Source: Escherichia phage BME3. From it: a DNA stretch of 64,000 nucleotides. Both the position numbers and the translations under genes were made by a program. Of this stretch, positions 58,152-63,396 are shown piece by piece (the stretch's first letter is position 1; every line of letters begins with the position of its first letter). The notes beneath the pieces were generated by a model that was not told where the DNA came from, searched no databases, and saw nothing but the letters and a program-made list of their open reading frames with translations. The stretch is from the sequence record PP239276.1. One strand, given 5' to 3'.

Positions 58152-58414
58152 AAATGAATTTTATTATCTACGGTAAACCAAATTGTCCTTTCTGCACTAA
58201 CGCTAAAATTCTGCTAGAACAGCGTGAACAGGATTTTAAATACCTTACCTTAGATGAAGACTATTCTTTAGATCAGATTCAGAATCTGGTTTTAGAGAAA
58301 ACAGGTGTTCTGCCACGTACCTTTCCTCAAATTTTTGTGGAAGATGGTGAACATCTAACCCACGTAGGAGGTTTTTCTGAACTACGTGAATTCATGGCTC
58401 AGATTGCGGAGTAA
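58148..58414 (+). CDS. glutaredoxin / NrdH-like redoxin
   Basis: 88-aa ORF with active site CPFC near the N-terminus. Confidence 0.6.
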   Translation: MKMNFIIYGKPNCPFCTNAKILLEQREQDFKYLTLDEDYSLDQIQNLVLEKTGVLPRTFPQIFVEDGEHLTHVGGFSELREFMAQIAE

Positions 58415-58427
58415 CAATATGAAAGGT

Positions 58428-58563
58428 AAACAGAAACGTAAGATCTTTTCTCGTGCTTTGGCAACAGAGCTTAAGTCCCAAACTAAAAAGACGAAGCCTA
58501 AACGTGAAATGTCTCCTGAACACCTACTGTTTCAAGAGCTAGATCATGGGGAGGGCGACTAAT
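58428..58563 (+). CDS. small basic protein (44 aa), uncertain
   Basis: Short ORF MKGKQKRKIFSRALATELK... directly upstream of the lysozyme gene; below the ORF-track cutoff. Confidence 0.2.
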
Positions 58564-58574
58564 ATAAGGAAAAC

Positions 58575-59075
58575 ATGGCTAAAGTAGTTGATGTGTTTGA
58601 TATGTTACGTTTTGATGAAGGACTAAAGCTAACTGTATATACTGATACCGAAGGGTATTGGACGGTTGGTATTGGACACCTTCTGACAAAACGCAAAGAT
58701 AAAGCAGAAGCTATACGCATTCTTGATAACTTAGTAGGTAGAAAAACCAATGGGGTTATTACTGAAGCGGAAGCTAGAAAAATCTTTGAGAGTGACGTAA
58801 AGAAAGCGATACAACAGATCCATTCAAGCACCATATTATCTCCTATTTACGATAAAGTAAGTCCTAATCGTAAAATGGCTATTATCAATATGGTATTTCA
58901 AATGGGATTGAAAGGTGCAGAATCTTTCAAAAATAGCTTGACTTTAGTGAGTAATTCATATTATACTCAAGCCTCTATAAATTTACGTAAAAGTAAATGG
59001 TATCGCCAAACGCCTAATCGCGCAGAGCGTGTAATTCAGGTACTTAAAACTGGAACATTAGACGCTTATAACTAA
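58575..59075 (+). CDS. endolysin, T4 e-type lysozyme (GH24)
   Basis: 166-aa ORF closely paralleling T4 lysozyme (DEGLKLTVYTDTEGYWTVGIGHLLTK, INMVFQMG, WYRQTPNRAERVI). Confidence 0.9.
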   Translation: MAKVVDVFDMLRFDEGLKLTVYTDTEGYWTVGIGHLLTKRKDKAEAIRILDNLVGRKTNGVITEAEARKIFESDVKKAIQQIHSSTILSPIYDKVSPNRKMAIINMVFQMGLKGAESFKNSLTLVSNSYYTQASINLRKSKWYRQTPNRAERVIQVLKTGTLDAYN

Positions 59076-59079
59076 ACAA

Positions 59080-59100
59080 AGGGGCGAAAGCCCCTTTTAT
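59080..59100 (+). terminator. rho-independent terminator
   Basis: AGGGGC-gaaa-GCCCCT followed by TTTTAT; same hairpin as at 45992. Confidence 0.5.
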
Positions 59101-59113
59101 AAGGAGTGCAAAC

Positions 59114-59866
59114 ATGGGAAATAAAACCGCAAAGGCTCGTCGTCAATCAGCAGCCAATGATGACAAACGTGCCAGTCGTTATGCGGCTAAAGCAGTAGGA
59201 AATGATGATTACCGTCTTGATGAATTTACCCCTGTTGGGAATCAAGAAGCTATTGTAAGAAGCATGGTTTGGAATGATTTAACCATTGTTAATGCCCCAG
59301 CAGGAACAGGAAAAACGACAACAGCACTGTGGAAAGCATTGCAAATGCTTAAAGCTGGTGATTTCAGAAAGTTGATTTTCCTTAAAAACCCGACAGAAGT
59401 AGGTGATGATCAAATTGGTTTCTTATCTGGAGATAAGACTGATAAACTGGCAGCACACTACGAATCAACTAAAAGAATTTTCCAACAGTTTATGACTGCA
59501 AATAAATTGGAAAACGATATTGCAAGTGGCAAAATTGAACTTAATATTCCAAACTATGCACTAGGTGCTACCTGGGATAACAGTATTATTCTTATTGATG
59601 AAGTTCAACTTATGTCACCAAATACAGTAAAACTTCTTCTTGAGCGAGCAGGTCTTAATACACGTATTGTCATTATGGGTGATGTTAATCAAACATATGC
59701 AATTAAACGAAGAGCTAACGGGTTAGGTGATTTGTTAGATCGTGTTGTTCCTATTAATGAAGAAGGAGAAAGGGAAGCTATTGTAGATTTTATTGGTTAT
59801 GTTGAAATGACAACTGCTGATAACCAACGTTCCCGTTTGTCTCAGTTCATCACGGAAGTATACTAA
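59114..59866 (+). CDS. phoH: PhoH-like ATPase
   Basis: 250-aa ORF with Walker A NAPAGTGKTT and LIDEVQ Walker B. Confidence 0.75.
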   Translation: MGNKTAKARRQSAANDDKRASRYAAKAVGNDDYRLDEFTPVGNQEAIVRSMVWNDLTIVNAPAGTGKTTTALWKALQMLKAGDFRKLIFLKNPTEVGDDQIGFLSGDKTDKLAAHYESTKRIFQQFMTANKLENDIASGKIELNIPNYALGATWDNSIILIDEVQLMSPNTVKLLLERAGLNTRIVIMGDVNQTYAIKRRANGLGDLLDRVVPINEEGEREAIVDFIGYVEMTTADNQRSRLSQFITEVY

Positions 59867-62029: not shown

Positions 62030-62260
62030 ATGACCGAGAAATTTATTGTTACTATGGAACTCACCTTTGATGAAGAAGATTTTGATCTTCATGTATCAAC
62101 TAAAGCAGATAACATTCACACAACACAGAGTGTTGCAATCGCTATGTTCTTTAAACAAGCAATTGCAAAACAAGCTGAAGTATGTGCTGGTTTAGCTGTA
62201 GAGTATGCAGAAGTTGTCAAGGTTCTTGAAAGTGCTCGTAACGGCGATTGGGATGAATAA
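62030..62260 (+). CDS. hypothetical protein
   Basis: Internal ATG after AGAGGAG RBS. Confidence 0.3.
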   Translation: MTEKFIVTMELTFDEEDFDLHVSTKADNIHTTQSVAIAMFFKQAIAKQAEVCAGLAVEYAEVVKVLESARNGDWDE

Positions 62261-62463
62261 TGGCATACAATTACTATCTGGTATATTTTAACGAAACTAA
62301 GAAAAAAGACACAGGAACTAATGTTTATGCGGAATCCGAAGAACACGCAAAAGCTATTGGTTCAGTGCTTCTTTCTAGAATAGCAGGTGAAGAAATTCCT
62401 GTAGAGGCTATCTTTGCAGAAGTTGATCCTGATATTCAAGAAGATGATATTACCACTACTTAA
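62260..62463 (+). CDS. hypothetical protein
   Basis: 67-aa ORF. Confidence 0.3.
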   Translation: MAYNYYLVYFNETKKKDTGTNVYAESEEHAKAIGSVLLSRIAGEEIPVEAIFAEVDPDIQEDDITTT

Positions 62464-62520
62464 CTGTTGACTTTAACGTTAAGGTAGTGCATACTTCCTG
62501 TAACAGAACAGGAGGGTATT

Positions 62521-63183
62521 ATGAAGTTTGTACTGTATCATCGACTTTCTAAGAAGAAACAACAAGGCAACCAGTATGGTATAGAATCACAGGAAGCAGA
62601 TATCCAACGCTTCCTGGATTCACAAGAAAATTATACTATTGTAGGTAGCTTTGCAGAGTTTTATTCTGGTAAAGGCGATTGGAAGCAACGTAGAGAGCTT
62701 GTAAAAGCTGTTAATCTTTGCAAAGAAACAGGTGCTACACTTGTTGTTGCTAAGGTTGACCGTCTTGGACGTAACACAGCTTCTGTTGCAACCTTGTTAG
62801 AGATGATTAATGTACGAATAGCAACTATGCCCTCCGCTGAAAATATGATAATAAATATTTTAGCAGTTCTGGCAGAAGAAGAGGCTCGTGCAATATCTGA
62901 TCGTGTTAAGAAGAGCCTTAAAGTAGCAAAAGCGAAGGGAACGCTTCTTGGTGCAGCAAACCCTAAATACAAAAGAACAGATTATACGAAAACGGAAGAA
63001 GCAAAACGCTCAAAAGAGTTTGCGCTTTCTTTAAAAGATTCTTTAGTTGCATACAGAGCTTGTAAAACGCCATATATGACGATTGCAAAACATCTGAATG
63101 AATCAGGAAAGAGAACTATTCGTGGGAGTTTGTTCGATGCCAAAGCGGTACAACGTCTTTGTGCAAAATTGAATATTAAATAA
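62521..63183 (+). CDS. serine recombinase (resolvase/invertase family)
   Basis: 220-aa ORF; YHRLSKKKQ (catalytic Ser region), VAKVDRLGRN and EEEARAISDRVKKSL parallel resolvase catalytic-domain motifs; C-terminal helix-turn-helix-like segment. Confidence 0.55.
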   Translation: MKFVLYHRLSKKKQQGNQYGIESQEADIQRFLDSQENYTIVGSFAEFYSGKGDWKQRRELVKAVNLCKETGATLVVAKVDRLGRNTASVATLLEMINVRIATMPSAENMIINILAVLAEEEARAISDRVKKSLKVAKAKGTLLGAANPKYKRTDYTKTEEAKRSKEFALSLKDSLVAYRACKTPYMTIAKHLNESGKRTIRGSLFDAKAVQRLCAKLNIK

Positions 63184-63192
63184 GGAGGAAAC

Positions 63193-63396
63193 ATGGCAGT
63201 TCAATCTTTTGAGGAGACTGTTAAAAAACAATTCCTATCGAAGCGAGCGATGGTTGAATTTTTGCATTTTCTCGAAGTAGATAGGGTACTTATTGAGACT
63301 ACACCAGATGGTAACTGGCAAGTCTCGTATATTGCCACCAGGCATATCGTAGACAGTACGAAAGAAGAAAGTTCGGAAGTTACGGTTGCTAGTTAA
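63193..63396 (+). CDS. hypothetical protein
   Basis: 67-aa ORF. Confidence 0.3.
   Translation: MAVQSFEETVKKQFLSKRAMVEFLHFLEVDRVLIETTPDGNWQVSYIATRHIVDSTKEESSEVTVAS

Follow-up and report, generated by a model that had tools for sequence, protein, structure and literature searches.

In this study, a 64,000-nucleotide stretch of one strand of Escherichia phage BME3 DNA (PP239276.1; hereafter the window) was analysed, and the gene at 62521-63183, called gp053 here after its ortholog in phage phi92, was followed up. Profile matches, alignment and substitution patterns indicate that gp053 encodes an intact small serine recombinase, that purifying selection acts strongly on it in a lineage of virulent myoviruses of 130-150 kb, and that the gene does not belong to a lysogeny module. 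Tentatively, we read the protein as one of the early gene cluster that most likely catalyses a resolution- or deletion-type reaction on replicating phage DNA. The gene itself is an already known feature, present in databases since the phi92 genome was deposited, and the literature searched contained no report on what gp053 or its homologs do. The protein is encoded and organized as follows.

62521-63183, plus strand: coding sequence of the small serine recombinase, 220 amino acids, with the ATG at 62521 and the stop codon ending at 63183; ortholog of Phi92_gp053, 100% identical.
62521-62943, plus strand: catalytic domain (Resolvase, PF00239), residues 1-141, delimited by the Pfam match to residues 4-141, invariant alignment columns and an AlphaFold2 (AF2) model.
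62548-62550, plus strand: codon TCT of the nucleophile Ser10.
62842-62934, plus strand: helix E, residues 108-138 (31 residues), from the AF2 model.
63004-63168, plus strand: predicted C-terminal four-helix DNA-binding domain, residues 162-216, from AF2 helices, PF07508 matches of family members and Foldseek.

Residues 4-141 of the protein matched the Pfam Resolvase profile PF00239 (E=8.4e-22; 78.3 bits, the curated cutoff being 23.3). The best PHROG match of the protein was PHROG 125 'DNA invertase' (E=1e-31), and PHROG 95 'integrase' was matched as well (E=1.5e-25). A first-pass annotation, made by a model from the letters of the window alone, had noticed resolvase-type motifs in this open reading frame (ORF); all of them were located, and the profile matches place the resemblance far beyond chance. 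YHRLSKKKQ corresponds to residues 6-14 and includes R8 and the nucleophile S10, VAKVDRLGRN corresponds to residues 76-85 with D80, R81 and R84, and the 'ERA' helix reads EEEARAIS at residues 119-126, within helix E. When 34 family members, some as little as 30% identical, were aligned, Y6, R8, S10, D80, R81, R84, E121 and R128 were invariant or at least 90% conserved, and Q24 was likewise invariant or nearly so. The catalytic set of gamma-delta resolvase is R8, S10, D67, R68 and R71. Judged by alignment, gp053 thus holds the full catalytic residue set of serine recombinases, and the context of its catalytic serine has not been lost. The AF2 model built on the family alignment (mean predicted local distance difference test score, pLDDT, 88.7) showed a resolvase alpha/beta core, helix E, a lower-confidence linker and four helices. 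By both profile and catalytic residues, gp053 is assigned to the serine recombinase superfamily.

The gene is strongly conserved. Over the 3 kb around it, 55 records of phages from the genus Justusliebigvirus (phi92-like phages, subfamily Stephanstirmvirinae) were 98.7-99.4% identical to the window, and the gene was found in all 55 of them, at the same place. At the protein level gp053 was 100% identical to Phi92_gp053 (YP_009012384.1) and to about 50 other records, in surroundings 98-99% identical at the DNA level. Phi92_gp053 is the same gene as the window ORF, its neighbours matching on both sides (a Dam-like methyltransferase, gp055 and gp054 before it, gp052 and gp051 after it). RefSeq labels the phi92 protein 'DNA invertase', and other submitters have called it recombinase, resolvase or hypothetical protein. 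Outside the genus, homologs were found in Phapecoctavirus (57% identity, phAPEC8_0049), in Klebsiella phages FKP3 (78%) and KP13-16 (51%) and in Vibrio and Shewanella phages of about 130-140 kb (31-49%), with more distant ones in Cellulophaga, Microcystis and Arthrobacter phages. Three complete phi92-like genomes differed in the gene by 2-6 synonymous and 0-2 non-synonymous substitutions, and the ratio of non-synonymous to synonymous rates (dN/dS) against relatives at 78-88% protein identity was 0.02-0.09, with synonymous sites saturated. The suggestion of the first-pass annotation that the gene could be a remnant of a mobile element is contradicted by this ratio, by the identity across about 50 genomes and by conservation across the subfamily.

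A natural chimera bears on what selection maintains. At the syntenic position, Klebsiella phage 05F01 (LC483177.1 129776-130447) carries a chimeric serine recombinase. Its first ~135 residues form a Gin-type invertase catalytic domain (E=3e-21 to Gin) with 28% identity to gp053, while its last ~90 residues are 60% identical to the C-terminal domain of gp053 without a gap, the join falling near the end of helix E. In all other homologs the relation is reversed, the N-terminal domain being more conserved than the C-terminal one (86/66, 67/45 and 62/35%). In 05F01, therefore, the catalytic module appears to have been replaced by one of another functional type and the DNA-binding module to have been retained, which argues that serine-recombinase chemistry and a lineage-specific DNA target are both maintained by selection. 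The domain swap may also serve as a handle for finding the DNA target.

The surroundings of the gene resemble those of phage early genes. In phi92, many early and DNA-metabolism genes follow one another in a single direction, and the recombinase gene is one of them, preceded in order by NrdA, an HNH endonuclease, NrdB, deoxythymidine diphosphate (dTDP)-sugar enzymes, a PhoH-like gene, an HslV-like gene, a Dam-like methyltransferase gene, gp055 and gp054, and followed by gp052, gp051, a phosphatase and a DprA-like protein. In several phages the neighbours include DNA ligase, DprA-like, exonuclease and NrdAB genes. The 2.5-kb region of the recombinase gave no match in 5,426 complete E. coli genomes by sensitive blastn, and among 185,579 bacterial species, represented by one genome each, the best homolog was 38% identical and none came from enterobacteria. 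Since neither an E. coli match nor a bacterial homolog above 38% was found, the gene is judged not to be a lysogeny module; integrated copies with attL and attR in hosts, as expected of a prophage, were likewise not seen in these searches. The phi92 annotation lists neither an integrase nor a repressor in the 27 kb around the gene, although the window ORFs were not each scanned for them. The first-pass annotation had described an apparently virulent genome with no integrase, repressor or attachment-site features nearby; both statements agree with these results, namely the phi92 annotation, the placement among phi92-like Justusliebigvirus, and the lack of an E. coli genome match or a close bacterial homolog.

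The C-terminal domain sets gp053 apart from the best-known small serine recombinases. Its AF2 helices span residues 162-170, 172-180, 185-194 and 207-216, and a motif IAxxLNxxGxxTxxG...VxRL lies within residues 162-216. PF07508 'Recombinase' was matched by 23 of the 34 family members, always at profile positions 4-51 of 102, two of them above the gathering score. For gp053 itself PF07508 was not reached at E<=1, PF00239 being its sole Pfam match at that threshold, and HTH_7 (PF02796) was not detected either. With Foldseek, the best PDB match of the gp053 model was Bxb1 integrase (9iu2). From sequence and model together, the domain is best described as a truncated 'Recombinase' domain of the large serine recombinases, comprising its first half. 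The short C-terminal helix-turn-helix proposed in the first-pass annotation was thus partly right, in that a helix-turn-helix-like unit is predicted, but it is part of a four-helix half Recombinase domain and not a classic HTH_7.

A catalytic domain joined to a half Recombinase domain is a common architecture. The family profile retrieved 3,455 clusters (50% identity) at E<=1e-30 among 1.8 billion representatives, mostly of 215-240 amino acids and aligned end to end, and 83 word-indexed homologs covered 97-100% of gp053. In its features gp053 fits an unnamed group of small serine recombinases of ~220 amino acids (NCBI 'recombinase family protein'), with a ~60-residue C-terminal domain containing IAxxLNxxGxxT. 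Bacterial and plasmid 'recombinase family protein' genes of ~215-240 codons align with it over the full length and have the same architecture, although they are only ~30-38% identical, uncharacterised and from unrelated hosts (Cytophagales, alphaproteobacteria and cyanobacteria).

Comparison with the named groups of serine recombinases was made feature by feature. By sequence, the nearest solved proteins were Sin and the Tn3/gamma-delta resolvases (E about 1e-5), Gin being weaker (about 1e-3). With the Tn3/gamma-delta, Sin and beta-type resolvases gp053 has in common the catalytic fold, the catalytic residues and the small size, but its C-terminus is not HTH_7 and it has no upstream res-like site array, transposase or plasmid context. 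The 57-bp gap upstream, where a res region would be sought, holds a promoter, and only its -35, its -10 and the ribosome-binding site are conserved over 8 loci; the neighbours are phage early genes and not a transposase or other transposon or plasmid genes. The Hin/Gin/Cin/Pin invertases belong to the same superfamily and carry the same database label, and the 05F01 ortholog has a Gin-like catalytic module; gp053 differs in its weak similarity to Gin, in the missing HTH_7 and in the lack of both inverted repeats and an invertible segment beside the gene. With the large serine recombinases (Bxb1, phiC31 and A118 integrases) it shares the N-terminal motif with an insertion after the catalytic serine (RLSKKKQQGNQYGIESQ) and the start of the Recombinase domain. 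It is, however, less than half their size (220 against 400-700 amino acids), ends after PF07508 positions 4-51 of 102, and has neither the second half of that domain nor the zinc ribbon and coiled coil, which in large serine recombinases control directionality. The catalytic domain begins at residue 1 and the DNA-binding domain is C-terminal, unlike the IS607 type, in which a MerR-like helix-turn-helix lies N-terminal to the catalytic domain. No NCBIfam equivalog was reached, CcrB, Mpi and YneB all falling far below their cutoffs; for Mpi (NF009949) the score was 33.5 bits against a cutoff of 272, in an alignment spanning residues 6-196. Since at least one defining feature of each group was looked for and found missing, gp053 is not classified as a Hin/Gin invertase, a Tn3-type resolvase, a large serine integrase, an IS607 transposase or a member of the Mpi family.

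The region upstream of the gene, between the preceding ORF and the ATG, contains the following elements.

62467-62495, plus strand: predicted sigma-70-type promoter, TTGACT, 17-nucleotide spacer, CATACT, from a consensus scan.
62470-62485, no strand assigned: imperfect 16-bp palindrome ACTTTAACGTTAAGGT within the promoter spacer, read from the sequence; a possible operator.
62510-62515, plus strand: ribosome-binding site AGGAGG, 5 nucleotides 5' of the ATG; the same element is annotated as the ribosome-binding site of PHI92_gene_053.

The promoter thus sits in the 57-bp gap after the upstream ORF and is followed by AGGAGG. Over the whole window, the number of promoters found by the consensus scan was not above that in shuffles. 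At the matching position 5' of the orthologous gene, TTGAC(A/T)-N17 with a -10-like hexamer was present in 8 phages, down to 51% protein identity, and phylogenetic footprinting of these 8 gaps showed that only the -35, the -10 and the ribosome-binding site were kept, the spacer sequence not being conserved. We infer that host RNA polymerase transcribes the recombinase gene from this promoter, as the first gene of a separate unit. A terminator-like hairpin is additionally present in the gap of KP13-16, VPMCC14 and Shewanella phage 1/40, and the dyads 5' of the Vibrio, Shewanella and KP13-16 genes resemble terminators of the preceding operon.

A small gp052-like ORF of 67 amino acids (63193-63396, plus strand) starts 9 nucleotides past the recombinase stop codon. 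The phi92-like phages, FKP3 and four metagenomic relatives all have it directly after the recombinase gene, as does, by a weak match (E=0.02), KP13-16. As a candidate partner, gp052 had no Pfam match, just two homolog clusters and an AF2 model (pLDDT 80) without a significant fold match, so that a partner role is neither supported nor excluded. Upstream, the gp054-like ORF (62260-62463) is likewise usually retained beside the recombinase gene.

The first-pass annotation had also proposed that the recombinase could invert a DNA segment such as a tail-fibre switch, and this was examined at two scales. A whole-genome comparison was made among A150, PD211 and VEcB (OZ035773), and a 55-genome screen covered window 39001-64000, the 25 kb around the gene, the remaining ~120 kb lying outside it. 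In the screen, all 55 Justusliebigvirus records were collinear with the window, and the six records with two match places were all explained by record ends. The whole-genome comparison gave exactly one inverted piece, of ~870 bp, at A150 58396-59267 (phi92, NC_023693.1, about 131.0-132.3 kb), which is not part of the window and is separated from the recombinase gene by about 37 kb. It contains phi92 gp216 and gp214, a divergent promoter region and the 5' part of gp217. Among the 55 genomes it occurs in both orientations, about 31 to 24. In one arrangement a DUF2829-like N-terminal domain is fused to the C-terminal domain of gp217, and in the other each is encoded by a gene of its own, one on either strand.

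The segment was examined in six genomes as a possible switch of the recombinase and was rejected. The breakpoints were the same in PD211, ZYD and J-01. Its junctions carry no inverted repeats, the best being 12-16 nucleotides with mismatches, and they are not clean, 225 nucleotides being specific to one class and 217-452 plus 32 nucleotides to the other. When copies were aligned directly, the inverted class showed 4-7% divergence in the segment and its left flank, while divergence within the A150 class was 0-2%, so that orientation follows haplotype. These three observations indicate an old rearrangement at a variable divergent-promoter junction and not a recombinase-driven switch. The arrangement of the Hin/Gin/Cin/Pin systems, with inverted sites of about 26 bp around a segment present in both orientations, was thus not found, and the tail-fibre-type switch received no support in the DNA covered here. 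Since neither a DNA target nor an invertible segment was found, the database label 'DNA invertase' is unsupported for gp053.

Two sequences were screened for recombination sites: the window and A150 (MG065639.1), a complete related genome collinear with it. Sites that are short or degenerate would have escaped these screens. Searches for direct and inverted repeats, by self-BLAST in the case of A150, gave, as repeats of at least 21 bp, solely rho-independent terminator hairpins or members of a promoter-plus-stem-loop family, with no partner sites among them. A short-range inverted-repeat scan of A150 returned low-complementarity pairs only. A dyad scan (12-bp arms, at least 11 matches, gaps of 0-8 nucleotides) gave 13 hits against 6-8 in Markov controls, which was graded as not enriched; none of the 13 was near the recombinase gene, and no motif was common to any two. 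For the palindrome ACTTTAACGTTAAGGT in the promoter spacer, no second copy beyond chance was found in the window or the whole of A150, and the palindrome is not conserved in relatives. The search for inverted repeats flanking an invertible segment, which had been suggested as a check together with the original motif call, therefore revealed neither partner sites nor a flanked segment in the window and A150.

The repeat family seen in A150 deserves description of its own. At 43.1-52.5 kb of that genome, outside the window, there are at least 9 direct repeats, each consisting of a TTGACA-N17-TAAAGT promoter followed by the stem-loop GGCGGGAAACCATTTCCCGCC and then a ribosome-binding site. They flank both sides of the 148-bp direct terminal repeat defined by phiWec187 (A150 about 46.9-47.06 kb) and are probably early promoters with 5' mRNA hairpins.

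The relatives of gp053 on plasmids were considered for the kind of reaction and of site. Outside phages, the relatives nearest to gp053 over its full length (35-36% identity) are found on plasmids: one gene is next to rep and parA on a 7.3-kb plasmid, and a second is carried by a 6.4-kb plasmid. A gene beside rep and par on a plasmid is the usual setting of multimer-resolution systems, and by analogy this context weakly favours a resolvase-type role for gp053. On plasmid pIITB3_2 (Synechococcus), a perfect 16-bp inverted repeat (CTTGTAACACCCTCAA / TTGAGGGTGTTACAAG) with a 32-bp spacer is located immediately 5' of a 36%-identical homolog and is a candidate binding site for that protein. Comparison of the upstream regions of two plasmid relatives gave no common site architecture that could be transferred to the phage. 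The first-pass annotation had suggested that the recombinase could resolve concatemers; a reaction of the resolution type is the one that would fit the plasmid context best.

Because of the plasmid context of these relatives and the location of the gene among replication and recombination genes, a resolution- or deletion-type reaction on phage DNA is favoured, with low confidence, and inversion or lysogenic integration is considered less likely. By analogy with characterised serine recombinases, gp053 dimers would use the C-terminal domain to bind a short dyad-symmetric site present in two copies, and the bound dimers would synapse into a tetramer. All four strands would then be cut at a 2-bp stagger through phosphoserine links at Ser10, and strands would be exchanged by subunit rotation. 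The outcome would be resolution or deletion between sites on replicating phage DNA, like that of a plasmid multimer resolvase.

Several observations weigh against this reading. The argument from plasmid context is indirect, the relatives being just 35% identical and uncharacterised. The genomes of subfamily members have short direct repeats at their ends (148 bp in phiWec187, mapping about 26 kb from the gene), and genomes with short terminal repeats are normally packaged from concatemers and need no resolvase; with packaging presumed to proceed in this way, a multimer resolvase would have no obvious job. The site searches yielded no recombination site, as dyads were not enriched, no repeats of at least 21 bp other than those of terminators and promoters were present and no upstream dyad was conserved. 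In Phapecoctavirus the gene stands at a different locus and in the opposite orientation, and in phage Schickermooser (NC_048196.1) the first third of the ortholog is interrupted by several frameshifts, annotation being limited to the C-terminal 128 codons; this ortholog is either a pseudogene or affected by homopolymer sequencing errors. Because of the different locus and orientation and these frameshifts, the recombinase gene may be dispensable.

A rival reading is a selfish or accessory gene, a moron or mobile cassette that is passed around among large virulent phages and adds little to their lytic growth. We consider this unlikely, though the following fits it: the predicted promoter of its own, the locus and orientation that differ between Justusliebigvirus and Phapecoctavirus, the patchy occurrence in unrelated phages of Vibrio, Shewanella, Cellulophaga, Microcystis and Arthrobacter, the absence from the rV5 and PVP-SE1 relatives cited in the phi92 annotation, the domain swap in 05F01 with the frameshifts in Schickermooser, and bacterial relatives that often lie on very short contigs or plasmids. 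Against it, the gene is at the same place in all 55 Justusliebigvirus records, its dN/dS is below 0.1, and neither flanking repeats nor empty-site alleles were found. Somewhat less probable again is an action on host DNA, by rearranging or cutting a host locus, or as a sequence-specific regulator that represses a promoter during takeover. The predicted early-type promoter for host RNA polymerase, the lack of a detectable site in the phage genome and the DNA-binding domain retained in the 05F01 chimera would fit it; that the catalytic residues are fully conserved speaks against regulation alone, and the hosts of homolog-bearing phages are so diverse that a common host target is unlikely.

True inversion, as the RefSeq and PHROG label implies, would have gp053 flip a distant phage segment and switch gene expression as Mpi does in Bacteroides. 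PHROG 125 as the best PHROG match, a sub-threshold Mpi match covering almost the whole protein, the ~870-bp segment present in two orientations and the Gin-type catalytic domain of the 05F01 ortholog are in its favour. Nevertheless, we regard it as improbable, since HTH_7 is missing, similarity to Gin is below that to Sin and the Tn3 resolvases, the Mpi score is far from its cutoff, no inverted repeats flank any segment, the 55 genomes are collinear over window 39001-64000, and the one segment in two orientations has class-specific junction DNA and haplotype-linked divergence. The last reading, a minimal integrase through which the phage could at times enter lysogeny or a carrier state, is hardly credible and close to excluded: the similarity to PHROG 95 and the resemblance of the N-terminal motif and partial Recombinase domain to large serine recombinases are set against the missing second half of that domain, zinc-ribbon domain and coiled coil in a protein of 220 residues, the lack of a match in the E. 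coli genomes and of a close homolog in the bacterial ones, and the absence of an annotated repressor in the surrounding 27 kb of phi92.

In conclusion, we found a conserved and intact serine recombinase gene that lies outside a lysogeny module and whose label 'DNA invertase' is not backed by an invertible segment. The phi92-like and phAPEC8-like phages are popular candidates for phage therapy, and automated safety screens take 'recombinase', 'integrase' and 'invertase' genes as markers of lysogeny. In one therapy paper, the Justusliebigvirus and Phapecoctavirus phages used were said to lack any recombinase (PMC12474050), and Phapecoctavirus ESCO5 was likewise said to be without one (PMC10269720); the Justusliebigvirus records from the latter study annotate the gp053 gene as a putative recombinase. 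The result calls for caution in annotation and in safety screens of therapy phages and poses a tractable question; it overturns no expectation. Alongside the resolution- or deletion-type reading, we advance as a speculation, unlikely as it stands, that strictly virulent large myoviruses keep an early-expressed recombinase with a DNA-binding module so important that it outlasted the exchange of the catalytic module in 05F01. The enzyme may act in trans at a distance from its gene, its target being either host DNA or phage replication intermediates close to the short terminal repeats. If true, this would be an undescribed role for serine recombinases in lytic infection. For this group of virulent phages, gp053 marks a conserved function.

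The window contains two further gene sets. At about 50.0-58.2 kb (phi92 gp075-gp064), an HNH endonuclease gene stands between nrdA and nrdB, and a four-gene pathway of the dTDP-rhamnose type encodes a glucose-1-phosphate thymidylyltransferase, a 4,6-dehydratase, a 3,5-epimerase and a reductase. At 28518-31395 on the minus strand there is a cluster of 16 transfer RNA genes (Ile, 3x Met, 2x Leu, Phe, Pro, Gln, Gly, Thr, Asn, Tyr, Lys and 2x Ser).

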